From Ostreococcus lucimarinus (lineage: Eukaryota), in NCBI GenBank assembly GCA_000092065.1, contig CP000590.1: 64,000 nucleotides of DNA; one strand, given 5' to 3'. Positions 7,707-57,723 of this stretch are shown in pieces. The position numbers and the translations under genes are program-made. The notes under the pieces were generated by a model, which was not told the DNA's origin, made no database searches, and saw only the letters and a program-made list of their open reading frames with translations. The stretch's first letter is position 1. Every line of letters begins with the position of its first letter.

Positions 7707-8008
7707 TTCCCTTTTTAGCCCATCCGTTTCTCATTTTTTATTTATACCGTCACACTGCTCTTTATATCCGACTGTCCGAATTTTCCCGACCACGCGCTTT
7801 TCGAGGCGGCGGGCCCGACGACCGCTCGGCGCGCGTCGATCGCGCGCGCGTCGCGCCGCCCCGCACACGCCCGCGCGACCGCGTCGCGCGCGACGTCGAC
7901 CCGCGACGACGACCGACGCTCGCTCGACCGCTCGACCGCGCCTCGCGCGTCCGAACGCGCGCGGCGAACGATCGATTCGATCTTTAAAAAGCGCCATCGC
8001 TATCCGAC

Positions 8009-9211
8009 ATGACGTCGGCGTCGATCGCGCGACTTCGACCGACGTCCACGAGCGCGTCGAGGCGCGACGTCGGCGCGAGAGCGCGCCAGGGGACGCGCGC
8101 GAACGGCGCGCGAACGCGCGCGAACGCGCGGACGGCGACGCGAACGATCGGGGACGCGACGGCGGGACGCGGGACGCGAGACGCGCGGATAAGCGCGAGA
8201 CGACGAGACGCGACGACGGCGACGCGCGCGGTCGGGGTGTCGAACTCGGACTCGACGAGCGGGATCGGGGGGGCGGAAACGATCGGGGGAGTGATGTCGT
8301 CGTCGTCGGACGACGGTGACGGGGCGCCGAGCGAGATTTGGGGTGGGCAGAGAAACGCGAGCGAGGCGAAGACGCCGAGACGCAAGGCGAGGACCAAGGC
8401 GGAGCGCGACGCGAGCGCGGAGTCGTACGAGTGGAGCGCGTGGGCGTCGTCGTGTGGAATCATAAGTATCGCCATTACGGCGACGTACTTTAGAATCTTG
8501 CGCGAGGTGGACGTGAACGGAGGGTTATTCCCGGTGGCTGAACTCGTGGCGCAGCTCGCGCTCATCGCCGGCGCCGCCGTCGGGATGGAGTTTTACGCTC
8601 GGTACGCGCACAAGCACTTGTGGCACGCGTCGTGGTGGAGCATGTCGAGCAAGTATCGCAGAGAGTGGAACAAGCCGATCTGGCTCTTACACGAGTCTCA
8701 TCACCTCCCGCGCGAGGGTGCGTACGAGGCGAACGACGTCTTCGCGCTCGTCAACGGCGTCCCGGCGTTCGCGCTGTGCGCGTTCGGCTTCTTCACCCCG
8801 GGCGTGTTCGGTGGCTTGTGCTTCGGCGCTGGTTTGGGAATCACGCTGTACGGTATCGCGTACATGTACGTCCACGACGGCTTGGTGCACAAGCGCTTTC
8901 CCACCGGCCCGCTCGGCAAGCTTCCTTTGCTGCGAAAAATCGCCGCCGGGCACACGATTCACCACACCGAGGCGTTCGAGGGCGTTCCTTGGGGACTTTT
9001 TCTCGGTATTCAAGAGCTCGAAGCCGTTCCGGGCGGCTTGGATGAACTCAACAAAGTCGTCGCCGCCGCTGAGCGCAAAGAGCAGCGCGACGAACGAGAC
9101 AATCGTGCGAGCGTCGGTCTCGTCACGCAAGGGACGCACATTCCCTCCCAGAAGGAGGCGCCGGCGTGCGTTCTCCCCGACGTCGCGGACAAAGGCGCCG
9201 GTCCGCGATAG
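8009..9211 (+). CDS. CHYB: Beta-carotene 3-hydroxylase (non-heme di-iron, plant CHY/BCH type) with a Ser/Thr/Arg-rich chloroplast transit peptide.
   Basis: Histidine boxes HKHLWH, HESHH, HDGLVHKRF and HTIHH sit in a four-TM fatty-acid-hydroxylase-like fold. The catalytic domain resembles plant and algal carotene hydroxylases. Confidence 0.85.
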   Translation: MTSASIARLRPTSTSASRRDVGARARQGTRANGARTRANARTATRTIGDATAGRGTRDARISARRRDATTATRAVGVSNSDSTSGIGGAETIGGVMSSSSDDGDGAPSEIWGGQRNASEAKTPRRKARTKAERDASAESYEWSAWASSCGIISIAITATYFRILREVDVNGGLFPVAELVAQLALIAGAAVGMEFYARYAHKHLWHASWWSMSSKYRREWNKPIWLLHESHHLPREGAYEANDVFALVNGVPAFALCAFGFFTPGVFGGLCFGAGLGITLYGIAYMYVHDGLVHKRFPTGPLGKLPLLRKIAAGHTIHHTEAFEGVPWGLFLGIQELEAVPGGLDELNKVVAAAERKEQRDERDNRASVGLVTQGTHIPSQKEAPACVLPDVADKGAGPR

Positions 9212-23691: not shown

Positions 23692-23948
23692 CCGACTGTA
23701 CCTTGTAACAGCAGCACCGTGGTAGCAGACAACACCCACGCCCCGCGCACGATGAACCGCACACGCGCGCGCGCGCACGTCAGATTGACGCACGAACGCG
23801 CGCGAACGCGCGAAGAAATCGCGTGCGCGTGTTTACCGCGCGAAGCCGCGCCCGCGACGCGCCCGCGACGCACGCGCGACGCGAACACGCGAACGCGCGA
23901 CGGTGAACACCCTCGGCGTCGCGCGATCGATCGCGCGTGGTGACGGCG

Positions 23949-32900: not shown

Positions 32901-35900
32901 GGTAAAGAGGAAACGCTCGCCGAAGTGGACGCCGATATTACGCTGCCGTCCACCATCATGGCAGGGGATGATATTGCGATGCACGTCTTATCACGCGACT
33001 TGCACGGGAATCACACTAACTGGCTTGGCGGCGAACGTATCGCCGTTCACGCACGCGGACCCATCGAAGTTCCGTTCGTTCCGATGGATGCGGTCGGCTC
33101 TTTCACGGCGGTCATCACAACGGCCGGAGCCTACTCGGTCGCCGCCCTCGTCGGCGACTGTGCGTGCAACGGATGGCCAAGAATCTTGCAAGTCGTCGCT
33201 GGTCCGTGTAACCCGGACAAGTGCACGGTAAGTGGGGATGCGCTCGGTAATTGTGCGACAGCGACTCCTATTTCGCTGTTGATGCAAGCTACGGACCAGT
33301 ACGGTAATCCGCGATCGCTTGGCGGTGATTTCATTGAAGCAGTGCTGATCAACGAAGACGAAGGTACCATTGATACACAGATAATCGACAATACCGACGG
33401 TACTTACACAATTAATTTCGAGCTGGACATGCCGATTGAGCACGAGCTGTGGATTTCTGCCAATGGCCTGCGCGAGAAACAAAGTCGCTACAGCTTGATG
33501 CCCAGCCTTGGCGCGCTGCAAGCGTCGGATTGCGTCATCAACGGTCTCGGCGGCGAGCGGTTGTGTCTCGCCGATCGCTCGACACTTTTCGTGCAACCAG
33601 CGAATCCGAGTCGCGTAATGAGTGGCAGGGAAGCCGTGGTGGTGTCTGTTCGCATGCCGAGCGAAATGTCCTTCAACTTGCCCCTGAAGTTTGAAACCGA
33701 TTCGCGAAGATTTTCGTGCCCTCTTCTTTGGGTTGAAGTCGGCGATCATCACATCACTGTCAATCTTGCTGGTGAAGTCGTTCCGGGTTGTCCATTCATG
33801 GTTCGTGTTCGAGATCCAGATGAAGAATTTGAGGAAATCGAAGGCGAGGAGTCGCAGACGGCGATGACCATGGTTCCCGCGGATAACTCTTTCGGATTTG
33901 TCTACACCAACGACAAGACGGCCGTCGCCGCTGCGCAAGCCGCGAGTGGCATCGGCACGACAGACGTGGACCCGGACGCAGAAGACGAAGACGATGAAGA
34001 TGCCTTCACATTTGGAACCGCACTCAACCCGCCACCTCCGCAACAAGTGGATTCGACCATCGCCATTATCCGCAAGCTCGAGCTCGAGGATGCAGGTGAT
34101 GCGCTCTCTGATATGCGCCCGGAGGTTGCCGCGGCGGTTTTGCAGCGCTTGAATCCACAAAAGGCTGCGTGTGCTGCGGCGATGATGTCTCAGACTGAAC
34201 TTAGTGCAGCGGTGGTAATGATGACGGAGGAAAGCGTATTGAGCGTGCTCAACGACGCGCCACCGGCCGCACGTGCGTCTATCATCGAATCTTTACCACC
34301 CGCTGCTGCGGCACAAGTGATGAATGGTATGGATGCCCGCGCCGCTTCCTTATGCGTCAATAAGCTCATTGATCCCGACGTTGCCGCGGCAATCATCGCT
34401 AAGATGAAACCCACAAAGGCAGCCGAGATGATGCAGTTTATCCCAGCTGATGCACAGAAGGCAATTTTGATCGAACTCGACCCGGTATCCATGTGCGCAT
34501 TGGTCACTGGTGCGTATGAGCCGACGGCGGCGGATGCCATCAGGCGAGGCCTGCAAGTGTCCCCGGACACGGTCAGTATCATCTTTACCACCGCTCCGGC
34601 GGAAGAGTGCGCTAAGATGGTCCGAAACATGCAACTTGACGCTCAAGGTTGTGAAATTGCAGCCGGTGCTATGCAGCGCGCCGCGCGAACGCATCCTCGT
34701 GCCGTTGAAAATATTCTCGCCATGACGAAGATGACCGCCGTCGACGGCGGCGCCGCCATCAAGGCAGCCGTGTTGAGACAACCGGGTGGTGATGTGATCG
34801 TCAAGAACGCCGAAACGAGTATAGCAAAGGGCGAGATTGAAATCCCCGCGCCCGTCGTGAAGACAAGGCAAGCCAAATTTAAGTGGGGTGGCACCGGTCT
34901 TAAGCCGAGTAAGACTGCATCCGAGCGCGCGGCGCGTTCGCTCGCCGGTATGGCTCCAAAGGTGTCTGCTCAAGCGCTCGCCGACATGCGTCCCGGTGCA
35001 GCGGGCGCGGTGCTCGCATCGATGGACTCTGAACGTATCTCCAGTATCATCTCCGTTATGGATCAGAATGTCATGGCGAGCGCGGTCGGAAGTATGGAGG
35101 CTGAAGAGGCATTACGCGTCATCAGCAGCTCATCGAATGCGGCGCGCGTGACGATTGTTGAAGCGCTCCCGGCTGGCGCGGCAGGATCCATCTTGAGTAT
35201 GTTACCGGCAGACGAAGCCGCGGACTTGCTTCGAGCCATGGACGCCAGCGCCGCCATTGAAGCAGTAAGCTCGATGCCCGCCAAGGCGGCTGCACTTGCC
35301 TTGCAAGAGCTCCCTGATGATCAAATGTCGACGTATTTGCTCACGCTTCCACCGAGCACGGCGGCACCTATCCTCTCGCACATGTGCGAGAGAGAAGAAG
35401 GCCGAGTGAGTGCATCCAAGGCGTTACAGCTGTTGAGCACGCTCAACGCAGATAAGACTACATTACACATCAGTGGAATGTTGCAACGAGATCCGAAGAG
35501 CACAGCGAAAATCATGACCGAACTCACCCAAGACGCTCGCGCAGCTGTGTTGGGTGCCTTGAACGCAAAGGATGCTGGCAAGGCGCTTCAATTCTTGGGG
35601 CCTCAAAATGCCGCATCTTCGCTCGTGGCTGCGGTAGCTGCGGGTACGAGTCCAGCGATTGCCGCAGTTGCACTCGAATCGTTGGCACGCCTCGGTGTTT
35701 GGCCACCAAGCATTGACGTACCGCGTTCTGGCGCCAAAGTGCGAGGTCCGCTTGCTGACGTCCTGTTGGTCATGTTCGAGCTTGAGCCTGAAGCAGCAGC
35801 GCAAGTACTCACCGCGCTCGATCCCGATGTCAGCGCATCGGCCGTCGGAGCAATGACCCCTGCAACTGCTGGTGCACTCGCGAGTGCCATCCCAGATCCA

Positions 35901-38900
35901 AAGGCTGCTGCGCTCTTGTTGGAGTCAATGCCGCACGCCAAACGGGCGGCGATGATCATCAAGATGCGTCCGCAGCCCGCCGCGGATGCGGCATCGAACA
36001 TGGAAACAGAGAACATCCTCGCTGTGATGAAAACGCTGTATGAAACGTTGGATCCGGCGACAATGTCGATTGCGAACGACATCATCTCGAAGATGGAGCC
36101 TTTCAAAGCTGGTTCCGTCGTTGCGGGTCTGGATGAAGCACACGCTGTCCGCATAATGTCAGCGTTGCCTCCTTTGGTTGCTGCCGCCTTGATTTCCAGT
36201 GGTGGTCTTCCGAGTGACAAGGCTGGTACATTCCTCGATCGCGTGAAGGTAGATCAAGCGGAGAATGTCCTTGCGGCACTCCCTCCGACTCTCGCGGAGG
36301 AAGCCGTGCAGAAGGTGTCAAGCACCGAGCTCAAGTCGAAGACGGCGTCTCGCACGGTGGTGCACCTGACCTCATCCCACATCTCAGGTCCTGGATGCGA
36401 AGAATGCGTCGCCGGTCTGGAAACCAAGTTCATCTTCGAAAGCACCAATCCAGGTGGTGTCCGAATCCACAAGGGTGGCGCGACATTGCAGTGCACAATC
36501 CATCATTTGACCTTCAAGTCGCAAGATGGGACGAACAGCGTGGATTTCATTCGAGGCGAAGGCAAACACGTGCAGGTGCAAGACATGATGAACGGTGCGT
36601 ACGAGTTCCCTTACAAACTCGATAAAGCCGGTGAATATGATGCCATGATTACGTCTGCTGGGCAGACTCGCGTCGTGCGAATCAGGTGCAAACCAACGAT
36701 ACTTGATCCGACGCAGTGCTCGGTGGTGCCGGTTGAGGAAGGAACCACATGGCGGGCGGGTGAAGTCCTCGTAGTCAAGGTGCTTTGTCGAGATCGATTC
36801 GGAAACGATGTTGCGCCACCGAAACAGGGTGATGCTGGTGTTGATTTCGTCTTGCTGGCGGATGGAGAAGGGCCGAGCGTCGTCGAGGCAGAGGTCGTCA
36901 ACGACCCAGCGGGTGTCGGCGCCTTCGCGAAATTCCGCGCGACGGAGTGCGGCAAGTACTCGCTTCGCATTTTTACGGCAGACGTCGCTCGTCAATGGTG
37001 GGGTGGTGTACAACGCGACTGCATTCAAGGTGCACCGATCGACATCGTTTTGACGGCCACCGCCGCAGATGCCTCGCGCTCAAGCGTGCAGCTCAGCGGC
37101 ATTCGTGAACGAGGTGGTGGCATGCTTCTCGGTTTGGCTGGTCGACAAATGGCCATCATCATTTTCGCCAGAGACAAGTTCAACAACGAAGCAGTCTTTG
37201 ATAATCAAAGACTGCGTGTTGACGCTGTCGGTGTCGCTACTTCTGTATTTAGCCTTACCTCGAAAGAGCCCGGAGAAGCAATGTTTACGAGTGCACTCCA
37301 GCGAGCAGGTACTTACTCGCTTCGCGTGACTGTGGACGGTAAGCCCGTGCACGGTTTCCCCCGTAACTTGCAGGTTGTTGCCGCTCAAACGGATCCGCGT
37401 TTCTGCTCTATTCGTGGAGATGCGCTCAACACTGTCGTTGCAGGCGAAGTCACGAAGGTTCTCGTGAATGCTGCGGATCGGTACCAAAACGTCTGCCTCG
37501 AAGGCGGTGATAGACTCACGGCGCGCCTTCTCGGTCCGGCGGGTTCTATCGATGCTGATACTTCTGATTTCGGCGATGGTACGTACCGATTGTCGTTCGT
37601 CGTCCCACGGGCTGGTGAGTGGAGAATCTTCTTAGCGGTTAATGGCGTGGAGAATCCGAAACCCGCGACTTCATTCGTCGCTTCCCAAGGCGGCTTGACG
37701 TCAAAGCAGCTCATGCTCATTCCAGCCGACAAGCGTGACGAGTACATGGTGGGTTCTGAATCTGAATTCTTCATTCAGTCCATCGATTACGAGGTCGGAG
37801 GTCTCGAAGTGAACGGCCATGAGGCTATCTGTCTGCGATTAATCGCACCCTCTGGCTTGTCCACGATTGTTCCCTTGAGGTTGACCAAAGACAAGGCGCG
37901 TTACCGCGCCAATATAATGTGGCCTGAAGTGGGCTCGCATTCGCTCATCGCGGCTTTGAACGGCGAAACTGTCGTTGGATGTCCATTCTCTGTGCAAACC
38001 GCCGCAGCACAGGTGTACGTCCCGGGATGTAAGATGACTGGCGCGGGCTCGACGAAGGCTGTCGCGGGCGAACGAGCGTCGTTCATCGTTGAGGCACGAG
38101 ACAACAGAGGCAACCGCATGATGGGAGGAGGCGCTACTCTGAGCGCCGTCGTACGATCTGCGTTGACCCCGGGGAAATCAGTCAAGGCCACCATACTTGA
38201 TCAAGGAGATGGTACGTACGTGTGCAGCTACACGATTAACAAAGCTGGTCCGTTCACCATCGTTGTGTCCTCACCCAACTCGCAAGCAACGCTCAGCGCC
38301 ACGTGCGTTGCCGGACCAGCGGACCCAGCATACTGCCGAATCGACGCGAGCGACGTCAAACAGATTGAAGCTGGTACGCGCGGCATCGTCAAGGTGTTAC
38401 GCGCCGATCGCTTCGATAACTTAATTCCCGCTGGTGCGGAGTTGATGCCATTCCGCGTTGAAGTCACTGGCGTCGGCCCGGCGGATGTCGAAACCGTCGA
38501 AGCAGGAGACGGTTCGGCAGAAGTTCGATTCGAGGCTCGTGCAGTCGGTCGATACACTCTTTACGTGTGGAGCGGCTTCAAACGCGAACCGGTGTTGGGT
38601 TCTCCGTGCGAGATTCAAGTCCTACCCAGTCAGCCCGCGGCTTCATCCTGCAAGGCGCAGTTACAAGGCGCCGAGTTCAAAGCTCAAGGCGTCTACAGCG
38701 CGCAAGCGGGTACCACTGTCACGGTGCGCATGCAACCGCGCGACAGATTCGGGAACACCACGGCTTGGAAGTCCTGGCAAACACTCAGCGTTACCGCGAG
38801 TGGTACCGAAGACATAACGTTTACAGAAATTGATGATCAAGAAGCAGTCTCGTCCCGCGGTGTGTTTTCTGCGACGTTTTCGAAAGCCGGCGCGTACGTC

Positions 38901-39383
38901 GTCTGGGTTACCGTCGGTGGACAAACCATCGTCGGCTGGCCGCGAGTCGTGCAAATCATTCCGGGCACCACCAACGCCAACGTCTCTCAGCTTCGTCCCG
39001 AGGCCGATAGTATGGCTCTCGCCGCCGAACTGGTGCGCCACGGTGGAAACGACGCTTCTCTCATCGACGCGCTCGGCCGTCAATCCACCGACGTGGACAA
39101 GCTGCGCGGTGAGATGATCGCTTTGAAGCAAAAGTTGGCTTCCTACGAACGCGCTGAACACGACGCGCGTCAGCGTGGCACAATAGATCCCACCGCCACC
39201 GCGCTGACGACTGAGCAAGTGGACAAGAAGAATATGAAAACCATGCAGTTGATGGTCGCCGAGACCGAGTCCGATAGAGGCACGCTCGACTCCGCCAACG
39301 ACGACGACGAGTTCGGCGACGCGTCGCCATTCTATGATGACAACGTTGACGACGCGGAGTTTGAAGACGCACGATCGCCGTGA
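23949..39383 (+). CDS. Giant single-exon protein (5144 aa). Layout: N-terminal NT-C2-like C2 domain; acidic linker; about 7 filamin/ABP280 Ig repeats; Ala-rich MgtE_N/FliG-like helical-repeat block (about nt 26880..28740); about 17 filamin repeats; acidic linker plus a second helical-repeat block (about nt 34050..36360); about 9 filamin repeats; C-terminal coiled coil and acidic tail.
   Basis: It is one stop-free frame of 15.4 kb with diverse composition. The N-terminus (KFKSLRGWNVDKYQFDVRAQ...RGEAVWDETLTLSCSMFV...KPAMFVLQ...IDLLEFA) fits the NT-C2 (EHBP1/PMI1-type) pattern. Dozens of roughly 95-aa units carry the filamin signature (e.g. GQDNFGNARTTGGDNVEGVLIGPSG...DHGDGSYLLEFT; DRYGN...GG...V...GP.G......D..DGTY.......AG.W). 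The helical blocks show L..M.P..AA.VL..M periodicity (e.g. SDMRPEVAAAVLQRLNPQKAACAAAMMSQTELSAAVVMM...SLPPAAAAQVMNGMDARAASLCVNKLIDPDVAAAIIAKMKPTKAAEMMQFIPADAQKAILIELDP). Confidence 0.9.
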   Translation: MASEPARAKFKSLRGWNVDKYQFDVRAQSAYNVLPGTQRLKLLWRRGHKRAETKTANVTRGEAVWDETLTLSCSMFVNPKTGMYESKPAMFVLQTVNEDGSIGKTYAEATIDLLEFALNPGRELSQTVPMRQGAVSMLTHLQFAVTATPLAENVALSDVSSALSVADLADVAELAATSAVPEKLAVNVIGEHEDEGYFDEKLDVREDAQSESEKEDSEFAYFDERLAYKVEGDDTEQLPPPTAEELLSGVDAEEGIVPGVKMMRLIVGKKCKIFVRGQDNFGNARTTGGDNVEGVLIGPSGQRGLVSTKDHGDGSYLLEFTCMQQGIWTLRTRFNGRLSVERHKLVVSFGPLTAQDVRVQLPKPPFRCGAYTDMQVVVEHPEDGRILTGAEAFNVRLVSPAGLSLGVPLDIRPGTTAAVARINWPEVGEHQLDVRLDGESLRGSPMRVEVVPEDLCLAACQLQGPGVHRCTAGIRSAFVIEAHDSRGNRLLSGGAPLFLGIRTASNESYSGEIVDFGNGTYEASYSVRVSGYYELSLAILGEELVIKGLCEPGKAVVAGCELVGDAGLDLEVGSSGRYSIIRHDAYGNRVPTRQGQIKFKVTADGPGPATCTMIDRADGVSDVDVSTSVAGRYFVQVTAGDQEPIPGSPFEVIAYPSPASHETSVTTVFGAQLAASDSDVLVAVAGEEVSLSVAPRDMYGNVTVFSKSAAITATATGGGVSTSFEERTGTRTEVSLFSTFRLAGSYLLTAKIGDKVLDGYPRILTVVSAATEPRKCMLFGDALQGVRCNRVSTLTVHAADKFGNLRSTGGDVVDVNLCSPDGKYVVASKVDDHADGTYGAKFKLERPGTWEIQLVVNGRGGRTQVNEITSYFAGVKANECTFSGMGSDGVEGVVCFKQSDIVIEPADFEQNSRLMSGKEAVAVRILTPSGGISSVDLKFENGKYRGSYTWTQPGQHTVSVSLDQEAIVGSPFSVEAMSALPQIAELENMAVGEIADILPKLSGEGASQALQSLGPDKAAEALAGNTPESAVRMMAHVFPGNVAEILSCMRPDAAAATISAMPGERAAEVLSTMQSNDATQLMKNMSSGEISEKAEMFADVICGMKEDDMLVCVRELMNSRTAEKGLKSVLDKMPARVVAELTGKLDKGENTRLLSGLSHERTAAIVSKLPVELQAGVIGLLGGDSMFQMTKTLYAAYKVDKNSSAQERSRMKADAQDTGHRLAPALASMDTEELRDNFKQATPEHIGGCLFALIDAKRRQVGSKAIARPVAQMMEDGSIEWGDGSISHVNEDRSAINHSDGTSASLRVDGTIIDSDGQVLKLRPDGIITADGTVLGADGEITTAPSGPLHMFRALTTEQQTAAILELIEFSQTGNAGEILVDLTATELRETIRPMGASDQAKVFIEIGRMSPSQAARAASVLSHTEAASVVSIMVNPGSSGRCDEPFMGPFLEALAPQILRNIEPPTAVGGALATHLSPTAAAHVLHKLEPMDVSRIIEGMSPAEVRQVIESSSNIQAEAGKAVSDTPLIAALVPYVSAMDDSQAATLLEGLPADMAVGVMMCTPEERAKEIMSHTRRRDLKERIANKSLIHLDACTIVNLRGAVAGESSSFILEARERGGNRITFGGGRLTVATKLFSAPGPGVEQGTVHDRGNGEYVVQFTSTLAGKIAVVVEASGQSRAWDVNIEASDVVIPKCTIEKQGLESWTAGSPGRILLTLRDRFGNFAHSSKSILEFEARASGPGGVIVERNMLDDGKIEFLLNTTVTGIYKVAVSCLDTKEDLSGCPFEARMGTDALSQAGCTASLQSLTSSTKGPGAKAAAYGACAAMAGEEVTCVVEARDRYGNTTTFAGEHVAVIAFGPAHLPADRPFEVADVRSGRMALRAIFPRSGSYTIAVTVDGIPIATSPLILHVFPGACETSRAVLRGDALNGIVASKITSLLVQTEDKYGNHCHVGGDRVNLSMSGPNGIKVNSLDVKDNEDGTYSFSFIIPQSGRWTIQAVVNGRIAKESTTEVVVTYGPLHAAACVLKGGPGMKRTEVCGAQRDIYLQALEYDANGRGMSGQEAITMHLITPSGATHTLAPVFAERGSRYKATVRWWEVGRHEVVAAVGGQPVVGSPFVVNVEAQEVSLPMCRLSGPGLQGAVAGERATILIESRDERGNRLFNGGAQMGIAVRSGGETLRGKVQDCGDGTYEASYIVERAGPFELSLFLGTEAATYRATCKPGRVDYAKCRVDGVNNGVWVAGEQLTLTVTRMDRFGNRITRREGLAPFFGKAIGPGDIVSQSLELGNGTAEIKLYGTVAGNYQIGVYVADTPIVPYANEEAEALMENQQLLLEDSKSAKSKADSKRIEAQESGLRTDSLAGTVRSASKSDINAGKPLAAVPGTFIASEDIEAMKEVTLPKVTTMNGVEMVPLPNGLFEMNLIPTIAMPNCCELEVIGGTRADDSWITPAGDEVIVRVIARDRYKNETHWEEGQTITVEALGPEFLSFSSHGTTSLQNEFVAKMIRAGTFELRVLCDALPVCWRAMQVIAGFTFAPRSILSMDGLKDVKTGNIVRLTLRTVDRYANLRLSGGDTVQLALQGPNGAFARQVSVTDHQDGTYALEFQVTAAGRWIMSTRINSVLHVEGGISFVVAFGTLTAEEAVVSFDPPLPKNGSVECGRTSDLMLHGAGWETNNRVMTGLEAVSVRLTHPSGSQEAIPVTLSRDNKCYTAKIRWLHPGHHSVNIMLDGVVVPGTPVRANAEGKKLALISSALVGDGATTATAGEDAEFTLLARDYGGNQINKGGADLAISCRASGREPIAGEIHDNGDGSYRCIYSSTIAGDIEVVLTLNEGTTQTKRLINVKCEAAECEISECRVDAGKMMLLWNAGDAGLIRVQRRDKYGNPTTKDTANGLNRFAAEVVGPGWADCEALELGDGSCELRLVAQAAGSYDISIVALAIDEETMTPLDVPSVELTSFSAMVSSQETFPSSCVARMALVNGGKEETLAEVDADITLPSTIMAGDDIAMHVLSRDLHGNHTNWLGGERIAVHARGPIEVPFVPMDAVGSFTAVITTAGAYSVAALVGDCACNGWPRILQVVAGPCNPDKCTVSGDALGNCATATPISLLMQATDQYGNPRSLGGDFIEAVLINEDEGTIDTQIIDNTDGTYTINFELDMPIEHELWISANGLREKQSRYSLMPSLGALQASDCVINGLGGERLCLADRSTLFVQPANPSRVMSGREAVVVSVRMPSEMSFNLPLKFETDSRRFSCPLLWVEVGDHHITVNLAGEVVPGCPFMVRVRDPDEEFEEIEGEESQTAMTMVPADNSFGFVYTNDKTAVAAAQAASGIGTTDVDPDAEDEDDEDAFTFGTALNPPPPQQVDSTIAIIRKLELEDAGDALSDMRPEVAAAVLQRLNPQKAACAAAMMSQTELSAAVVMMTEESVLSVLNDAPPAARASIIESLPPAAAAQVMNGMDARAASLCVNKLIDPDVAAAIIAKMKPTKAAEMMQFIPADAQKAILIELDPVSMCALVTGAYEPTAADAIRRGLQVSPDTVSIIFTTAPAEECAKMVRNMQLDAQGCEIAAGAMQRAARTHPRAVENILAMTKMTAVDGGAAIKAAVLRQPGGDVIVKNAETSIAKGEIEIPAPVVKTRQAKFKWGGTGLKPSKTASERAARSLAGMAPKVSAQALADMRPGAAGAVLASMDSERISSIISVMDQNVMASAVGSMEAEEALRVISSSSNAARVTIVEALPAGAAGSILSMLPADEAADLLRAMDASAAIEAVSSMPAKAAALALQELPDDQMSTYLLTLPPSTAAPILSHMCEREEGRVSASKALQLLSTLNADKTTLHISGMLQRDPKSTAKIMTELTQDARAAVLGALNAKDAGKALQFLGPQNAASSLVAAVAAGTSPAIAAVALESLARLGVWPPSIDVPRSGAKVRGPLADVLLVMFELEPEAAAQVLTALDPDVSASAVGAMTPATAGALASAIPDPKAAALLLESMPHAKRAAMIIKMRPQPAADAASNMETENILAVMKTLYETLDPATMSIANDIISKMEPFKAGSVVAGLDEAHAVRIMSALPPLVAAALISSGGLPSDKAGTFLDRVKVDQAENVLAALPPTLAEEAVQKVSSTELKSKTASRTVVHLTSSHISGPGCEECVAGLETKFIFESTNPGGVRIHKGGATLQCTIHHLTFKSQDGTNSVDFIRGEGKHVQVQDMMNGAYEFPYKLDKAGEYDAMITSAGQTRVVRIRCKPTILDPTQCSVVPVEEGTTWRAGEVLVVKVLCRDRFGNDVAPPKQGDAGVDFVLLADGEGPSVVEAEVVNDPAGVGAFAKFRATECGKYSLRIFTADVARQWWGGVQRDCIQGAPIDIVLTATAADASRSSVQLSGIRERGGGMLLGLAGRQMAIIIFARDKFNNEAVFDNQRLRVDAVGVATSVFSLTSKEPGEAMFTSALQRAGTYSLRVTVDGKPVHGFPRNLQVVAAQTDPRFCSIRGDALNTVVAGEVTKVLVNAADRYQNVCLEGGDRLTARLLGPAGSIDADTSDFGDGTYRLSFVVPRAGEWRIFLAVNGVENPKPATSFVASQGGLTSKQLMLIPADKRDEYMVGSESEFFIQSIDYEVGGLEVNGHEAICLRLIAPSGLSTIVPLRLTKDKARYRANIMWPEVGSHSLIAALNGETVVGCPFSVQTAAAQVYVPGCKMTGAGSTKAVAGERASFIVEARDNRGNRMMGGGATLSAVVRSALTPGKSVKATILDQGDGTYVCSYTINKAGPFTIVVSSPNSQATLSATCVAGPADPAYCRIDASDVKQIEAGTRGIVKVLRADRFDNLIPAGAELMPFRVEVTGVGPADVETVEAGDGSAEVRFEARAVGRYTLYVWSGFKREPVLGSPCEIQVLPSQPAASSCKAQLQGAEFKAQGVYSAQAGTTVTVRMQPRDRFGNTTAWKSWQTLSVTASGTEDITFTEIDDQEAVSSRGVFSATFSKAGAYVVWVTVGGQTIVGWPRVVQIIPGTTNANVSQLRPEADSMALAAELVRHGGNDASLIDALGRQSTDVDKLRGEMIALKQKLASYERAEHDARQRGTIDPTATALTTEQVDKKNMKTMQLMVAETESDRGTLDSANDDDEFGDASPFYDDNVDDAEFEDARSP

Positions 39384-51189: not shown

Positions 51190-51660
51190 ATGTCTCTCGC
51201 GACCGTCTCGCGCGCGCTCTCGCGCCCTCGCGTCGTCGTCGGACGCAAGGCATCGCGACGCACCGATTCCGAGCCCGCGGCTCGACGGACGACGCGCATG
51301 CACGCCTCGGACATCCAACGCTTGGGCACCGATGACCCTCGCATGAGTCAGGTGGTCGTGCACAACGGCATCGTCTACTGCAGCGGACAGGTTGGATTGA
51401 CCACGACCACGGTGCGAGAACAAACGATCGAAACGCTGGAAAAGTTTGACAAACTGCTCGCGATGGCGGGGACGGATAAGTCGCGAATATTGACCTCGAT
51501 GTGCTGGCTGCGGGACATCAAAGACGCGCCCGAGTTCAACGCCGTGTACAACGCGTGGATCGATCCGGATAATAAACCCACGCGGGCGTGCGTGCAGAGC
51601 GAGTTGGCGCGACCTGAATTGTTGGTTGAGGTGCAAATTACCGCGGCGTTGCCGCCGTGA
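51190..51660 (+). CDS. RIDA: RidA / YjgF / UK114-family reactive-intermediate (enamine/imine) deaminase with an N-terminal organellar presequence.
   Basis: VVHNGIVYCSGQVG...TLEKFDKLLAMAGTDKSRILTSMCWLRDIKDAPEFNAVYNAWIDPDNKPTRACVQSELARPELLVEVQITAAL follows the YjgF/chorismate-mutase-like pattern. Confidence 0.8.
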   Translation: MSLATVSRALSRPRVVVGRKASRRTDSEPAARRTTRMHASDIQRLGTDDPRMSQVVVHNGIVYCSGQVGLTTTTVREQTIETLEKFDKLLAMAGTDKSRILTSMCWLRDIKDAPEFNAVYNAWIDPDNKPTRACVQSELARPELLVEVQITAALPP

Positions 51661-51774: not shown

Positions 51775-53346
51775 CTACAGCTTGCTGTTCGGCTTGGCGT
51801 CGAACATGGGGTACCACGCGAACGGGTCTTCGGACACGTAGGTGACGACTTGCTTTTGGTGCAAGTACTTGTCCATGCCGTTCGCGCCGAGGTCGCGACC
51901 GAATCCGCTTCGCTTGCGACCGCCCCACGGGAGCTGAGCGAAGCAGGGTTGCGAGCAATTCACCCACACGATCCCGGTGTCAAACGCGGCAGTCATACGC
52001 TCGCGTCGCGCTAAGTCGTCTGTGATCACCGCCGCGGCTAAGGCGTAATCGGAATCGTTCGCCATCGCCACGACTTCCGTTTCAGAGGCGAACGTCTTGA
52101 CGCACATCACCGGGCCAAAAATTTCTTCTCGCCACACTTCCGCATCCATAGGGACGTCGACGAATACCGTGGGTTCGAGATAGAACCCCTCTCGACAGTC
52201 CGGATCGCTCGGTTTCTTGCCGCCCGTCAAAAGCGTGTATCCCTTGCGCTTCGCGCGTTCGACCATTTTCATCACCTTTTTGTACTGCCCTTCGCTCACG
52301 AGCGGGCCGAGGCGACACCCCTTGACGAGTGGGTTGCCGTACGGAATGGCTTCCGCAGCCTCCTTGAGACGCGCTAAGAACTTCTCTCGAATGCGCTCGT
52401 GAATGAAGACGCGCGACGTCGCGCTGCAGATCTGACCATTCGTCCAGAAACACCCAAACAGAGCCCACTCCACCGCCTTTTCCAAATCGCAGTCGTCGAA
52501 AATGACCAACGCGCTCTTGCCGCCCAATTCCAACGATACGGGCTTGACATCTTTCGCGCACGCGCTCATGATGATGCGGCCGGTTTGCAACGAGCCAGTG
52601 AACGATATTTTATCCACACCCTTGTGTGCGCACAGCGCAGCGCCAGCCTCGTCGCCTCGCCCCGTGACTACGTTGAACGCCCCCGGCGGCAACCCTGCTT
52701 CGACGCACACGTCCCCCAACACCTGACACGTCAAGCTCGCGAGCTCACTCGGTTTCAGCACCACCGCACATCCACTCGCGAGCGCGGGCGCGACTTTCCA
52801 CGTCGCCATGAGCAACGGATAGTTCCAAGGCGTGATCAAACCGATCACCCCCAGCGCCTCGCGTCGCAACCGTCCCGCGAACTCGTCCATGGGTAACTTC
52901 ACATCCTCCTCCGCGTACGCCTTATCCCCGAACACTTCATCGCACCGATCGGCGTAATAATCAAAGCACGCGCTGACATCATCGATATCCCACTCGCTCT
53001 CCTCGATCGGCTTCCCCGCGTCCAGCGTCTCCAGCTCGGCGAGCGCGCGTTTCCGCCGTTCGATCCCTCTCGCAATCCCCCGCAGCACCCGCGACCTTTC
53101 GCGCCCCGGCGTGGCGCTCCACACCTTATATCCCTTGCGCGCCGCCCGCACCGCGTCGTCGATCATCGCGCGATCGCCCGCACCGACGGCACCGATGTTT
53201 TTATTGTCGTGCGGGTTCACCACCGGCAGCGTCCTCGCGGCACCGCCGAGCGCCTGCGCCTGCGCCGCAGCCTGCGGCGCGCGCACCCACGCGTTATTAA
53301 TAAATTGTTCCACCCGTCCGCATCGTCCCGGCGGCGGCGCGGCCAT
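51775..53346 (-). CDS. BADH: Aldehyde dehydrogenase of the plant ALDH10 type (betaine-aldehyde / aminoaldehyde dehydrogenase) with a C-terminal peroxisomal PTS1 (-SKL).
   Basis: ITPWNYPLLMATWKVAPALASGCAVVLKPSELAS, the ELGGKS Glu region and FWTNGQICSATSR (catalytic Cys) are present. Overall similarity to plant BADH/AMADH. The C-terminus ...KPNSKL carries PTS1. The ATG is at 53344..53346. Confidence 0.9.
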   Translation of the reverse strand: MAAPPPGRCGRVEQFINNAWVRAPQAAAQAQALGGAARTLPVVNPHDNKNIGAVGAGDRAMIDDAVRAARKGYKVWSATPGRERSRVLRGIARGIERRKRALAELETLDAGKPIEESEWDIDDVSACFDYYADRCDEVFGDKAYAEEDVKLPMDEFAGRLRREALGVIGLITPWNYPLLMATWKVAPALASGCAVVLKPSELASLTCQVLGDVCVEAGLPPGAFNVVTGRGDEAGAALCAHKGVDKISFTGSLQTGRIIMSACAKDVKPVSLELGGKSALVIFDDCDLEKAVEWALFGCFWTNGQICSATSRVFIHERIREKFLARLKEAAEAIPYGNPLVKGCRLGPLVSEGQYKKVMKMVERAKRKGYTLLTGGKKPSDPDCREGFYLEPTVFVDVPMDAEVWREEIFGPVMCVKTFASETEVVAMANDSDYALAAAVITDDLARRERMTAAFDTGIVWVNCSQPCFAQLPWGGRKRSGFGRDLGANGMDKYLHQKQVVTYVSEDPFAWYPMFDAKPNSKL

Positions 53347-53420
53347 CGTCGCGCGCGCGCGAGTGTCGGGACACTTTTCGCGAAAAAGTGAAAAAGCGCA
53401 CCGCCGCACTGTCGGCCGCG
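53347..53420. promoter_or_regulatory. Putative shared bidirectional promoter/5'UTR interval (74 bp) between the divergent ALDH10 (minus) and GABA-transaminase (plus) start codons.
   Basis: Inferred from the gene arrangement. It depends on the start-codon calls (ALDH MAAPPPGR..., GABA-T MLARALER...). Confidence 0.35.
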
Positions 53421-54923
53421 ATGCTCGCGCGCGCGCTCGAGCGATGCGCGCGACGACGCGCGCGCGAGGCGATTTCGCGCGCGTCGCGCGACGCGCGCGC
53501 GTCGACGCGCGCGTCGTCGTCGTCGTCGCGCGCGGGGACGTCGAACGGTGAACCAGCCGCCCCGGTGGTGCGGACGCCCATCCCGGGACCGGCGTCGCGA
53601 CGCGCCGTGGAAGCGCTCAGCGCGCACGCGGACGTGGGGTCGATACGATACTTCGTCGACGTCGACGCTTCGCGCGGGAATTACGTCGTCGACGCGGATG
53701 GGAACGCGGTGCTGGACCTGTACGCGCACATCGCGTCGCTGCCGGTGGGATACAACCACGAAAAGATGCTCGCGGCGATGCGAGACGAAGCGAACGTGGG
53801 GATTCTCGCGCACCGACCGGCGCTGGGGAATAACCCACCGATCGGATGGGACGACAGAGTGGCGCGAACGCTCATGCGAGTGGCGCCGAAAGGGTTGACG
53901 CGCGCGACGACGATGGCGTGCGGGGCGTGCGCGAACGAACACGCGATGAAGGCGGTATTCATAAGCGCGGCGAACGCGCGGCGGGGCGGACGCGAGATAA
54001 GCGAGGAAGAAAAGGTGAGCTGTCTGACGAATCAAGCGCCCGGGTCGCCGGGATTTAAAGTTTTGTCGTTCGATGGTGCGTTTCACGGACGGACGGCGGC
54101 GTGTCTGTCGCTGACGCACACAAAGTGGATTCACAAGCTTGATTTCCCGACGTTTGACTGGCCGTCGTGCCCGTTTCCGAAATTAAAGTACCCACTGGAT
54201 AAATTTGAGCGAGAAAACGCCGAAGAGGAGGCGCGGTGTCTCGCTGAAGTCGAGAAGGCGTTGACGCGAGATCGAGACGTCGTCGCGGTGATCGTCGAGC
54301 CCATGCAAGCGGAGGGCGGCGATAATCACGCGAGCGCGGATTTTTTCCGAAAGCTTCGCGCTTTGACGAAGAGAGAAAACGTCCGCATGATCGTCGATGA
54401 GGTGCAGACTGGGTGTGGATCGAGTGGGACGTTTTGGGCGCACGAAGCTTGGGGATTAGAACATCCGCCGGACATTGTGACGTTTAGCAAAAAAATGCAA
54501 ATCGCGGGATTCTACGCGGCCGCGGATCTCGCGCCCGAGCTCCCGTACCGCATCTTCAACACGTGGATGGGTGATCCAGCAAAGCTCATTCAGCTCGAGG
54601 TTGTCCTCGATTGCATAGAAGAGCATCATTTATTGGACGTCGTGAAATCCGCCGGCGAGACGCTCTTGAATGGGTTGCGCGAGTTACAGGAGAAATATCC
54701 GAGCATTCTCGCCAATGCGCGGGGCGTGGGCACGCTTGTCGCCATCGATTGCGATACATCCGCGCGCAGGGACGCGCTGTTGCACGCACTCTTGCAAAAA
54801 GGTGTCGACATCGGCGGGTGCGGCTCGGCGACCATTCGCGCGCGTCCGGGGCTCTTGTTTACTTCGGCGCACGCGGGGGTGTTTTTAGAGCGGTTCGAGC
54901 GAGTCCTCGCTGCTGAAATGTAG
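53421..54923 (+). CDS. ABAT: 4-aminobutyrate (GABA) aminotransferase, eukaryotic ABAT-type class III PLP aminotransferase, with a mitochondrial-like presequence.
   Basis: Has the class-III aminotransferase core (…MACGACANEHAMKAVFI..., MIVDEVQTGCGSSGTFWAHE..., FSKKMQIAGFY with the PLP Lys). The long N-terminal region before the core is typical of animal/fungal-type GABA-T. The first ATG is at 53421 (the ORF-track start 53388 is GTG). Confidence 0.85.
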   Translation: MLARALERCARRRAREAISRASRDARASTRASSSSSRAGTSNGEPAAPVVRTPIPGPASRRAVEALSAHADVGSIRYFVDVDASRGNYVVDADGNAVLDLYAHIASLPVGYNHEKMLAAMRDEANVGILAHRPALGNNPPIGWDDRVARTLMRVAPKGLTRATTMACGACANEHAMKAVFISAANARRGGREISEEEKVSCLTNQAPGSPGFKVLSFDGAFHGRTAACLSLTHTKWIHKLDFPTFDWPSCPFPKLKYPLDKFERENAEEEARCLAEVEKALTRDRDVVAVIVEPMQAEGGDNHASADFFRKLRALTKRENVRMIVDEVQTGCGSSGTFWAHEAWGLEHPPDIVTFSKKMQIAGFYAAADLAPELPYRIFNTWMGDPAKLIQLEVVLDCIEEHHLLDVVKSAGETLLNGLRELQEKYPSILANARGVGTLVAIDCDTSARRDALLHALLQKGVDIGGCGSATIRARPGLLFTSAHAGVFLERFERVLAAEM

Positions 54924-54938
54924 TCATTTTTATTCAAT

Positions 54939-56004: not shown

Positions 56005-57723
56005 TCACGGAGCGAGAAGCTCGGACGCGAGGAAGTTGACGAAAGCGCGGGTGTCGTAATGCGCGACTTTGGCGCCGCTGGGGGATGGGACGGGGATGGA
56101 ATCGCACTCGTGAACGGCGACGCCCATCGCGGCGAGCGCGTCGACGTCGACGGTGATGCCTCCGTTCTTGGGGTATACGACGTCGGTGATCAGTTCTTTG
56201 ACGTCAAAGTTGGTTTCAGCGGCGGTGTAACGCATGTTGACGGCATCGACGACGGCGCGAACGATTTCGCTGGCTGTCATCGTGCCAGTCTCGCGATCGA
56301 GCGAACCGTTGAGCATGAGAAGTTTTTTGGATGTGGAGCTCGCGATGCATTGCGCCATGCCTTTCAGGCCGACGTTGGGGATGATTGAGGTATAGAGCGA
56401 GCCCATACCGTACAAGATGGCGTCGCAATCCGTGATGTTTTCCAGCACCGTGGGGTTCGGTTTTGGCTGCACCTCAAAGTTGTCGTCCGCCGGATCGAGA
56501 CTCGAGGCGTAAAAGACGCGCTTGATGGGCGACTCCAACGGATCATACGCGGTGACGACTTTATCGACGTCCCAAACACTTAAAGGCGTGTCGGCGATGT
56601 CGACGAAGCGCGACTTCAACAGTTCGCCGGCGTCGATGAGGCTGCCGCTCGCGAGCGCCGAGCGCACGCTCTTGAAACCTCCCGAACTTTGTTGCAACCC
56701 GCCCCACATCTCGTGCGCCTCCGTCTTCGGCACTTCGCCCAATTCCAGAACTTTCGTCCAAAATTCTTTGCTCACGACGTCCGGGCTCTTGCGCGCGGAT
56801 GACGATGACATGGAGACTTCCTTTGAAAACTTTTTGCTGTCGATGGACGGGTGTGAAATTTCATTCTGCCCGCGGAGAATCGTCCCGTTCATGAGCTCAG
56901 CCGCGAGATTTACGCGCTCGTTTTCCTTGTGCAAAAGGCACGGCACGATGTGCGTGTCGTCTGGAATGCGACTGACGCGAGAGTACAAGAAAATGGCCGC
57001 ATCCATCGAGCGAAAGAATAGTCGCGCGCCGGCGAAGAAGAAGTTTCCGATTGACCCGTTGACGAAATCAAACCTCTCCTTGATCGGCTTGGACGTCACT
57101 TCTTGATGAAAGTGCACCAAGAACCGGCGAATGATGTTCGCGTAGTCCTGTCCGATGCCTTCCCACAGCTCGTGATCGCCCTCTTGAATCTTGTACCACT
57201 CGTCTCGAGCGAGCGCGCTATCCGTCGGATGCAGACGGTGCCCGAGCAGCGCCTTGACCGCCACCGCCTCGGGCGTGGACTCATCCGTCACCCTCAGACA
57301 CCGCGATCGCAGATCACCCACCGCGGGCCCACCCAACACGCGCACGATCTCGCTCGTGGACCCACCGTTATCGCTCACGGGTATCACGTGCGTCACCTTT
57401 TGCGTCAACTCGCTCAGCTCCACCGCGATCACGTTCATCGCCGTCCCTCCCGAAAACACCACCACCTTTGGCGCCGAATCCGCGCGCGCCTCGAAATCGT
57501 TCACTCGCACCGCGACTCGCCTCTCGCCGCGTCCCTCGCGCGTCTCCGTCTCCGTCTCCGTCTCCGTCTCCGTCGCCGCCGCGTCGCCGTCGTTCCGCGT
57601 ATCCACCACCGACGCCCGTCCCCGCGCGCATCTCCCCCCCCTCCCGCGCGCCCGCGTTTCACCACCGCGCGCGCGCCGTCTCGCGACCGTCGCGCCTCTC
57701 CCCATCACCGCGCCGCGCGCCAT
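56005..57723 (-). CDS. UPF0052 / CofD-YvcK-like domain protein (eukaryotic homologue of the 2-phospho-L-lactate transferase / gluconeogenesis-factor fold). The N-terminus contains a (TE)5 repeat.
   Basis: KVVVFSGGTAMNVIAVEL...VIPVSDNGGSTSEIVRVLGGPAVGDLRSRCL matches the CofD/YvcK signature (GGGTG...DDGGSSG...PGDIRN). The N-terminal TETETETETE is encoded by the (TCCGTC)5 microsatellite. Confidence 0.7.
   Translation of the reverse strand: MARGAVMGRGATVARRRARGGETRARGRGGRCARGRASVVDTRNDGDAAATETETETETETREGRGERRVAVRVNDFEARADSAPKVVVFSGGTAMNVIAVELSELTQKVTHVIPVSDNGGSTSEIVRVLGGPAVGDLRSRCLRVTDESTPEAVAVKALLGHRLHPTDSALARDEWYKIQEGDHELWEGIGQDYANIIRRFLVHFHQEVTSKPIKERFDFVNGSIGNFFFAGARLFFRSMDAAIFLYSRVSRIPDDTHIVPCLLHKENERVNLAAELMNGTILRGQNEISHPSIDSKKFSKEVSMSSSSARKSPDVVSKEFWTKVLELGEVPKTEAHEMWGGLQQSSGGFKSVRSALASGSLIDAGELLKSRFVDIADTPLSVWDVDKVVTAYDPLESPIKRVFYASSLDPADDNFEVQPKPNPTVLENITDCDAILYGMGSLYTSIIPNVGLKGMAQCIASSTSKKLLMLNGSLDRETGTMTASEIVRAVVDAVNMRYTAAETNFDVKELITDVVYPKNGGITVDVDALAAMGVAVHECDSIPVPSPSGAKVAHYDTRAFVNFLASELLAP
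57541..57574. repeat. (CGTCTC)5 hexanucleotide microsatellite inside the UPF0052 CDS. It encodes (Thr-Glu)5 on the minus strand.
   Basis: Direct inspection: cgtctccgtctccgtctccgtctccgtctccgtc. Confidence 0.9.

Follow-up and report, generated by a model that had tools for sequence, protein, structure and literature searches.

The divergent aminoaldehyde dehydrogenase and GABA transaminase genes of Ostreococcus lucimarinus: a consecutive-step pair in a compact, colinear genome

A peroxisomal aminoaldehyde dehydrogenase (AMADH) of the ALDH10 family operating alongside a mitochondrial GABA transaminase (GABA-T) is the known arrangement in plants (PMC5057122, PMC4046141). ALDH10 isoenzymes competent as betaine aldehyde dehydrogenases (BADHs) carry Ala or Cys at residue 441 in spinach BADH (SoBADH), whereas Ile at this position, which hinders betaine aldehyde binding, is the mark of AMADHs without BADH activity (PMC4046141). 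The I441-type enzymes ALDH10A8 and ALDH10A9 of Arabidopsis produce GABA and β-alanine with negligible BADH activity, and ALDH10A9 is peroxisomal (PMC5057122). O. tauri, O. lucimarinus and Micromonas pusilla have one ALDH10 each, with Ile441 and of the ancestral peroxisomal AMADH type (PMC4046141); this assignment of the Ostreococcus enzyme is thus already published and is not a new result here. Regarding gene arrangement, 2288 bidirectional transcript pairs (3884 unique transcripts) have been described in O. tauri, with roughly half of the genes lying in head-to-head pairs (PMC4035068), and overlapping untranslated regions are pervasive in this species (PMC4378021).

Bacterial polyamine and GABA operons, such as puuC/puuE and gabD/gabT of E. 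coli, link an aldehyde dehydrogenase gene to an ω-aminotransferase gene and in this respect resemble the locus described here. Their genes are, however, co-directional and polycistronic and belong to other enzyme subfamilies (21 to 28% identity to the GABA-T studied here), whereas the Ostreococcus genes are monocistronic and divergent, and their products are predicted to go to different organelles. We know of no plant in which the ALDH10 gene is adjacent to a GABA-T gene. A metagenome scan with an alignment of prasinophyte ALDH10 proteins returned, among the matches listed, only distant ALDH loci without algal synteny: 80 loci, read as bacterial without taxonomy, were 39 to 53% identical to the alignment query (mostly 39 to 45%), and a class III aminotransferase was encoded in the flank of 6 of these 80. 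The two peptide patterns used in the scan were too general. A literature search returned nothing relevant on this gene pair, the GABA shunt or polyamine oxidase in Ostreococcus.

We analyzed a 64,000-nucleotide stretch of the O. lucimarinus genome (contig CP000590.1, assembly GCA_000092065.1), referred to here as the window. In it, an ALDH10-family gene (51775..53346, minus strand; 523 amino acids) and a GABA-T gene (53421..54923, plus strand; 500 amino acids), both intronless, stand head to head, with 74 bp (53347..53420) from first ATG to first ATG. This is taken as the distance between the genes because the next in-frame ATGs would remove conserved sequence; the longer, mutually overlapping ORFs with GTG starts (at 53388 and 53409) are a product of the bacterial-code ORF listing. 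The coordinates, strands and gap of about 74 bp put forward in an earlier reading made from the letters alone (the sequence-only reading) were thereby confirmed. The neighbors of the pair encode Voldacs, Rid-like, ribosomal protein S5, CofD-like, eIF3, nucleoporin and RanBP1 proteins. With its head-to-head orientation and a spacer below 1 kb, the pair is a bidirectional one, and it resembles the O. tauri bidirectional pairs in being divergent, in having a spacer far shorter than 1 kb and in having a common 5′ region (PMC4035068). Unlike most of those pairs, for which this is undocumented, it encodes consecutive pathway enzymes. Only two pathway genes are linked here, fewer than the minimum of three non-homologous genes from a single pathway that defines a eukaryotic metabolic gene cluster.

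The product of the minus-strand gene matched the Pfam model Aldedh (1.3e-163), and its top PDB matches were all plant ALDH10 enzymes (E values of 1e-162 to 6e-186, with other ALDHs at 4e-117 or weaker), the closest solved structures being pea AMADH2 (3iwj, 6e-186), maize AMADH1 (4i8p) and spinach BADH. It is 100% identical to a protein cluster containing O. lucimarinus XP_001420154.1. The catalytic Cys (GQICSATSR), the general-base Glu (ELGGKS) and the acidic residues at the channel entrance (WDIDDV) are kept with respect to 3iwj, 4i8p and 4a0m and are invariant in 10 prasinophyte orthologues. Over its full length the protein is ∼53 to 56% identical to plant peroxisomal I441-type enzymes (pea AMADH2 and Arabidopsis ALDH10A9), with which it shares these motifs, Ile441 and a C-terminal -SKL; it differs from them in that a few algal-specific residues are inserted close to the N terminus and in that it is known from sequence only. 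The translation ends in DAKPNSKL, and the three last codons (51778..51786, minus strand) fit the PTS1 pattern (S/A/C)-(K/R/H)-(L/M). A C terminus of the -SKL, -SRL or -AKL type is found in the Ostreococcus clades, M. pusilla, Cymbomonas and one 64%-identical relative, the exceptions among the relatives being P0008, which ends in -SSS, and a Pterosperma sequence, which ends in -TKL.

Source annotations of this enzyme read betaine-aldehyde dehydrogenase, and its best-scoring NCBIfam model is the bacterial BetB model for BADH (TIGR01804). Both would fit an enzyme serving mainly in the synthesis of glycine betaine as an osmolyte, in which case the adjacency to GABA-T would be functionally meaningless. 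The score of 516.3 bits nevertheless lies below the model cutoff of 668.6, and alignment places Ile459 (codon at 51970..51972, minus strand) at SoBADH position 441, the specificity determinant: DTGIVWV of the algal protein aligns with EVGAVWV of spinach BADH (4a0m, A441) and with AGIVWV of pea AMADH2. Given the behavior of Ile441 enzymes described above, we reject a main role as BADH on the strength of this residue and consider it highly improbable. The enzyme is instead predicted to be an aminoaldehyde dehydrogenase of the ancestral peroxisomal type that acts poorly on betaine aldehyde. The sequence-only reading had proposed an aminoaldehyde enzyme ending in a PTS1, rather than a strict BADH, and on both counts it agrees with these data.

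The plus-strand gene encodes an ABAT-type, 2-oxoglutarate-dependent 4-aminobutyrate/β-alanine transaminase. Its product matched the Pfam model Aminotran_3 (4.9e-97) and passed the NCBIfam model TIGR00699 (GABAtrns_euk) marginally, with 571.2 bits against a cutoff of 567.15. It resembles the animal and fungal mitochondrial enzymes, as represented by pig ABAT (1ohv, 2.5e-149), and retains the PLP-binding Lys329, the carboxylate-binding Arg192 and the Fe-S ligands Cys135 and Cys138 (pig numbering; FSKKM, GAFHGRT and TMACGACANE, respectively). In being of the animal type, it is unlike the pyruvate-dependent GABA-T of plants (POP2); it departs from a typical ABAT in that its TIGR00699 score barely exceeds the cutoff and in that its targeting is putative. 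Relatives are widely annotated as GABA or (S)-3-amino-2-methylpropionate transaminase. The alignment with mature pig ABAT starts at residue 47 and is preceded by an Arg/Ala/Ser-rich extension of ∼46 amino acids (residues 1 to 46; 53421..53558, plus strand), and similar, non-conserved extensions are present on the GABA-Ts of the other Ostreococcus clades. This extension is a putative organellar presequence, probably mitochondrial, although it may alternatively be a plastid transit peptide. Both the identity of the enzyme and a presequence-like N terminus had been anticipated from the letters alone.

Homology, together with the conserved catalytic and specificity residues, suggests that the two enzymes would catalyze consecutive reactions, leading from 4-aminobutanal via GABA to succinic semialdehyde and, in the same way, from 3-aminopropanal via β-alanine to malonate semialdehyde. 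ALDH10 would oxidize the ω-aminoaldehydes to GABA and β-alanine, which GABA-T would then transaminate with 2-oxoglutarate in an organelle, probably the mitochondrion. Both enzyme identifications hold, and so does the earlier claim that the pair encodes two consecutive pathway steps. The claimed split between compartments is compatible with the PTS1 and the N-terminal extension, both of which are present, but it is not a new insight, given that the plant situation is already established.

A third gene had been invoked to strengthen the case for functional clustering, namely a RidA-family deaminase next door. The gene concerned (51190..51660, plus strand) does encode a Rid-superfamily, Rid2-like protein (PF01042 Ribonuc_L-PSP, 1.1e-22), which could as an imine deaminase form a three-gene islet of detoxification and catabolism with ALDH10 and GABA-T, acting on imines from amine oxidases or from the PLP enzyme. 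It adjoins the ALDH gene both in the window and on O. mediterraneus-like contigs, and its closest solved relatives are the bacterial Rid2-like proteins PSPTO_0102, NMB1025 and PA5083, the first and last of which are annotated as L-PSP/RidA family; the active-site Arg of the algal protein (KPTRACVQ) aligns with that of all three. PA5083 is, we presume, an imine deaminase of the Rid2 type. An identity as archetypal RidA was rejected, given that the protein reached 52.5 bits with TIGR00004 and missed the cutoff of 106.25. Furthermore, the gene is convergent with ALDH (tail to tail, 114 bp from stop to stop), so that it is neither co-oriented with the pair nor shares a promoter with it. In O. tauri, the 118-bp gap between ALDH and Voldacs contains no Rid gene, and no O. 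tauri ortholog was found among 74 homologues; a 395-amino-acid ORF separates ALDH from the Rid gene in another Ostreococcus clade (L109), and no Rid homologue was detected at the M. pusilla, L013/L014 or Micromonas-like L105 to L107 loci. We reject a three-gene cluster on the absence from the O. tauri site, and such an islet seems very unlikely. The Rid gene is probably an incidental, evolutionarily labile neighbor rather than part of a functional unit with the pair: what stands of the earlier claim is the adjoining Rid-superfamily gene, and not the label RidA or any strengthening of functional clustering.

The spacer (53347..53420) must contain both 5′ ends and any common promoter region. Since the start codons are only 74 bp apart, we infer that both genes must use a common 5′ regulatory space, and some transcriptional coupling across it is physically likely. 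The short spacer, together with the consecutive reactions and an I441 AMADH type that suits aminoaldehyde substrates, could point to a selected, co-regulated bidirectional module, in which one promoter would match the peroxisomal output of GABA and β-alanine to the mitochondrial transaminase capacity. The spacer, however, measures 74, 138, 106 and at least 155 bp in the four Ostreococcus clades, with a mean column identity of 49%, and the clade alignment revealed no common cis-element beyond a (CG)n run. An inverted-repeat scan likewise found only low-complexity pairs of the (CG)n type. Besides this run, the window spacer contains a near-palindrome, CACTTTTCGCGAAAAAGTG (53372..53390). The 11-mer forming its left arm, CACTTTTCGCG, shows no enrichment in the window (3 occurrences versus 3.8 expected from shuffles), and the near-palindrome is not conserved in the O. 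tauri spacer; we therefore rejected it as a common promoter element.

Neither orientation nor distance sets the pair apart. Divergent gaps in the window, taken from a crude gene model in which some models are dubious, measure 54, 434, 281, 131, 508, 14, 74 and 321 bp, and the convergent gaps of the same model 15 to 169 bp. The 74-bp gap is thus short, yet inside the local range of the few pairs in the window. The head-to-head arrangement is the default architecture of the ultra-compact Ostreococcus genome and not special to this locus, which weighs against a co-regulated module, with about every second O. tauri gene arranged this way anyway. Hence, the suggestion of an operon-like, co-regulated pair is borne out as far as divergence and closeness go; the arrangement itself, of which O. 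tauri has more than two thousand examples, is not special, and the spacer is not conserved.

We also looked at the arrangement in related algae. We found the pair in the window, in O. lucimarinus-like contigs (L004 to L009), in L109, in O. tauri (L108) and in O. mediterraneus-like contigs (L010 to L012), so that adjacency and divergence are kept in four sampled Ostreococcus clades whose proteins are ∼71 to 77% identical. This retention would favor a co-regulated module, were it not that all Ostreococcus pairs lie inside one block, Nup-RanBP1-Voldacs-(Rid)-ALDH-GABA-T-S5-CofD-eIF3-Ipi1; because colinearity extends over this entire block of at least 10 genes, retention within the genus is uninformative. 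Outside Ostreococcus, the pair is absent around the ALDH10 genes of M. pusilla CCMP1545 (L015) and of L013, a relative that, like L014, may be Bathycoccus given its GC content of 0.48, as well as around the GABA-T genes of Micromonas-like L105 and L106 and of L019 to L024; in all, it is missing from M. pusilla, a second, Micromonas-like lineage and four other related lineages examined. The adjacency is therefore not conserved beyond background synteny, being found in Ostreococcus only. A synteny unique to this genome had been named beforehand as evidence against a functional pair; the outcome is a softened form of that, with the arrangement extending to four clades and ending at the genus.

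Taken together, we favor the explanation that these are two ordinary, single-copy, intronless metabolic genes that lie head to head, with their adjacency carried along in a colinear block of a compact genome (probability of about 0.62). The juxtaposition would then be a genus-level trait, passed on within that block. The locus appears as an ordinary, mildly suggestive neighborhood, and it offers no positive evidence of selection for adjacency or of use in coordinated regulation. Several points run counter to the view of ordinary neighbors. Besides the persistence of the divergent adjacency in all four clades and the physically likely coupling across a 74-bp spacer, consecutive pathway steps are not expected from random neighbors, although a rough estimate, which was not computed, of ∼7 to 8 thousand adjacent pairs and 5 to 10 pathway partners per enzyme would yield a few chance pairs per genome. 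Moreover, the Micromonas GABA-T lies close to the same Voldacs gene without an ALDH, which indicates a rearrangement that specifically placed ALDH10 beside GABA-T (or removed it); selection could be behind it. This sign of a lineage-specific joining is a further point for a co-regulated module, a reading that is weakly supported and that we regard as possible but doubtful. We judge it unlikely that a rearrangement in the Ostreococcus ancestor joined the single ALDH10 and the single ABAT-type gene, with the Rid2-like gene alongside in some clades, into a small, selected catabolic unit for ω-aminoaldehydes and ω-amino acids with one bidirectional control region.

Were the pair co-regulated, it would be a small, tractable case of metabolic gene clustering and of a bidirectional promoter in the smallest free-living eukaryote, and it would suggest that marine picoplankton use the turnover of polyamine-derived GABA or β-alanine as a nitrogen route under regulation. 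If the genes were joined as a selected unit, a nitrogen-limited picoalga could recycle or scavenge polyamine nitrogen, and the locus would stand as a rare example from the green algae of two metabolic genes brought together de novo. The high gene density and colinearity of the genome are the simplest explanation for the adjacency, and function should not be read into neighbor pairs of compact eukaryotic genomes. Mainly, the locus confirms what is known, namely that Ostreococcus retains the ancestral peroxisomal aminoaldehyde dehydrogenase and employs an animal-type GABA transaminase.

The two enzyme genes at this locus lie head to head. The ALDH10-family aminoaldehyde dehydrogenase gene (ALDH) is on the minus strand (first ATG, 53346; stop, 51775; 523 amino acids), and the 4-aminobutyrate transaminase gene (GABA-T) is on the plus strand (first ATG, 53421; stop, 54923; 500 amino acids). 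Between the ATGs lie 74 bp (53347..53420), the figure given by the sequence-only reading. Overlapping GTG-initiated open reading frames (ORFs) at the pair are a product of listing ORFs under the bacterial code. On the far side of ALDH lies a Rid-superfamily ORF (51190..51660, plus strand, 156 amino acids), which is convergent with ALDH and 114 bp from its stop codon. The window is GC-rich (about 0.55 to 0.75), dense in genes, and mostly without introns. At the protein level, ALDH is 100% identical to a cluster holding Ostreococcus lucimarinus CCE9901 XP_001420154.1, and the same ALDH/GABA-T locus was found again in many marine metagenome contigs, including contigs from Tara. The window accordingly belongs to O. 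lucimarinus or to a strain very near it.

ALDH matched the Pfam Aldedh model (1.3e-163), and its closest solved structures were all plant ALDH10 enzymes, namely pea AMADH2 (3iwj, 6e-186), maize AMADH1 (4i8p), and spinach BADH (E of about 1e-175); the remaining ALDH families gave 4e-117 or weaker. In residue-level alignments, ALDH has both catalytic motifs (Cys and Glu) and the acidic residues of WDIDDV, and its Ile459 (codon 51970..51972) aligned with Ala441 of spinach BADH. According to Muñoz-Clares et al., Ala or Cys at position 441 permits betaine aldehyde oxidation, and Ile is a mark of ancestral peroxisomal AMADHs without BADH activity; the same authors assign Ile441 to the sole ALDH10 of each of O. 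tauri, O. lucimarinus, and M. pusilla (PMC4046141), meaning that the I441-type, peroxisomal assignment of the Ostreococcus enzyme is already published. In Arabidopsis, the I441-type enzymes ALDH10A8 and ALDH10A9 convert 3-aminopropanal to beta-alanine and 4-aminobutanal to GABA with negligible BADH activity, and ALDH10A9 is peroxisomal (PMC5057122). The residue at position 441 and these plant precedents support the proposed aminoaldehyde role, and ALDH is predicted to favor aminoaldehydes and is unlikely to be a strict BADH. The proposed peroxisomal targeting signal was also borne out: the protein ends in -SKL, and a PTS1-like tripeptide (-SKL, -SRL, or -AKL) is kept in M. pusilla, Cymbomonas, a 64%-identical relative, and the Ostreococcus clades, with departures in one relative, P0008 (-SSS), and in a Pterosperma sequence (-TKL). 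The N terminus aligns with the plant enzymes without a long extension.

GABA-T matched Pfam Aminotran_3 (4.9e-97) and narrowly passed the NCBIfam equivalog for eukaryotic 4-aminobutyrate--2-oxoglutarate transaminase (571.2 versus a cut-off of 567.15). Mitochondrial ABAT of pig and of human matched it at about 1e-149, and it retains Lys329, Arg192, and the Fe-S cluster residues Cys135 and Cys138. Judged by sequence, it is of the animal/fungal/protist type and not the pyruvate-dependent plant enzyme. Taken together, the Pfam, solved-structure, and NCBIfam matches and the key residues show that both enzymes had been called correctly. Relatives of GABA-T are also annotated as acting on (S)-3-amino-2-methylpropionate and beta-alanine, and for this reason the order from dehydrogenase to transaminase fits not only the C4 series but also a C3 series running from 3-aminopropanal through beta-alanine to malonate semialdehyde. 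Residues 1 to 46 of GABA-T form an Arg/Ala/Ser-rich extension with no equivalent in the mature pig enzyme, compatible with a putative mitochondrial presequence. In plants it is already accepted that peroxisomal ALDH10 supplies an organellar GABA-T (PMC5057122, PMC4046141), and the split between compartments carries no new implication from this locus.

The neighboring Rid protein contains PF01042, and its identity as an archetypal RidA was rejected, as it scored 52.5 bits against a RidA model cut-off of 106.25. Its closest solved relatives are PSPTO_0102, NMB1025, and PA5083; the active-site Arg is retained, and an N-terminal extension of about 40 amino acids is present. With this extension, the protein is best classed as Rid2-like within the superfamily. 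Its nearest nonalgal homologs, from Paraburkholderia and Pseudomonas, share about 50 to 53% identity, with haptophyte and diatom homologs in between, and no plant and no O. tauri protein was among the 74 homologs found. In the O. tauri locus, no Rid homolog was found in 13.5 kb, and the ALDH stop lies 118 bp from the Voldacs gene of the syntenic block; the Rid gene is apparently lacking in this species. With bacterial Rid2-type proteins nearest, no plant homolog among those found, and O. tauri seemingly without the gene, its ancestry may be patchy or horizontal. In L109, a contig of a further Ostreococcus clade, a 395-amino-acid ORF (7768..8955, minus strand) separates ALDH from the Rid gene. 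Pfam gave no match to this ORF, and the window lacks an equivalent there; it may be spurious or an insertion confined to that clade. Because the Rid gene is evolutionarily labile at the locus, the notion that it strengthens a functional cluster is not supported.

The divergent pair itself occurs in four Ostreococcus lineages: the window with L004 to L009, L109 (ALDH identity, 81%), O. tauri (L108, GCA_002158475.1 KZ155832.1; 71%), and the O. mediterraneus-like contigs L010 to L012 (75%). The O. tauri reference annotation gives the pair consecutive accessions, XP_003081654 and XP_003081655. All four lineages are colinear over nucleoporin, RanBP1, Voldacs, (Rid), ALDH, GABA-T, ribosomal S5, CofD-like, eIF3, and Ipi1/TEX10, and since the whole block is colinear, retention of the pair is uninformative beyond general synteny. 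Conservation of the arrangement thus held within the genus and was not seen outside it. No class-III aminotransferase was found within 10 kb of ALDH10 in M. pusilla CCMP1545 (L015, GG663751.1) or next to the 63%-identical ALDH10 of L013 and L014 (GC, 0.48; Bathycoccus-like by composition only). GABA-T had no ALDH neighbor in three further lineages (L019/L020, L021/L022, and L023/L024) or in L105 to L107, an abundant marine lineage (GC, 0.67) that we call Micromonas-like because of the CFAP-type (cilia/flagella-associated) domain genes at the locus. There its neighbors are Ras, ammonium transporter, and Voldacs genes; at L105/L106 (9078..14584), these are a Ras GTPase, a convergent ammonium transporter, and Voldacs about 2.5 kb off. 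GABA-T and the ammonium transporter form a second, putative nitrogen-themed juxtaposition. The Voldacs-GABA-T linkage may be older than the ALDH-GABA-T adjacency, and it implies a rearrangement beside GABA-T in which ALDH10, alone or together with the Rid gene, would have been either gained or lost.

The spacer is not conserved across the four lineages. The ATG-to-ATG distance is 74 bp in the window, 138 bp in L109, 106 bp in O. tauri, and at least 155 bp in the O. mediterraneus-like contigs, and a MAFFT alignment gave 49% mean column identity with a (CG)n run alone in common. The near-palindrome CACTTTTCGCGAAAAAGTG at 53372..53390, mid-spacer, is absent from the O. tauri spacer and, judged by its 11-mer left arm, is not enriched within the window. 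A box resembling CACTTTT is seen again in the spacers of L109 and the O. mediterraneus-like contigs and not in O. tauri. No conserved bidirectional element was found in the spacers of the four lineages.

A head-to-head pair with a spacer below 100 bp is short yet unremarkable here. In a crude gene model, divergent spacers in the window measured 54, 434, 281, 131, 508, 14, 74, and 321 bp, and convergent ones 15 to 169 bp. For O. tauri, a count of 2288 bidirectional pairs, made up of 3884 transcripts, has been published (PMC4035068), and overlapping untranslated regions (UTRs) caused concatenated transcripts in an RNA-seq assembly (PMC4378021). Only 15 bp (54924..54938) lie between the GABA-T stop and that of the next gene, which is convergent and encodes organellar ribosomal protein S5, and the 3' UTRs of the two must therefore overlap; this gap shows extreme genome compaction. 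Next in the block, a 572-amino-acid CofD/2-phospho-L-lactate transferase-like protein (56005..57723, minus strand; PF01933, 3.4e-38) is kept across the Ostreococcus clades, a eukaryotic occurrence of a mostly prokaryotic family. Elsewhere in the window, a single plus-strand ORF of 5148 amino acids (23937..39383) encodes a giant repeat protein in which Pfam matched many Filamin repeats, an NT-C2 domain, several MgtE_N domains, and Invasin_D3/Ig-like domains, in a stretch with a GC content of about 0.55 against about 0.64 in the surroundings.

An operon-like, coregulated module for GABA and polyamine catabolism is not established, since the adjacency is genus specific, the background is colinear, the spacer is unconserved, and the architecture is the default of the genome. 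Physically, some coupling of the two genes through their common 74-bp 5' region would be plausible. We consider it unlikely that the pair was selected and is coregulated. By a rough, uncomputed estimate (7 to 8 thousand neighbor pairs and 5 to 10 plausible pathway partners per enzyme), chance alone would yield a few functionally consecutive neighbor pairs per genome. We give the explanation that the two genes are incidental neighbors a probability of about 0.62; a selected, coregulated pair comes next, and other alternatives rank below both. No description of an ALDH10-GABA-T adjacency was found in the literature searched. The two genes are at most a functionally related bidirectional pair of a compact genome.
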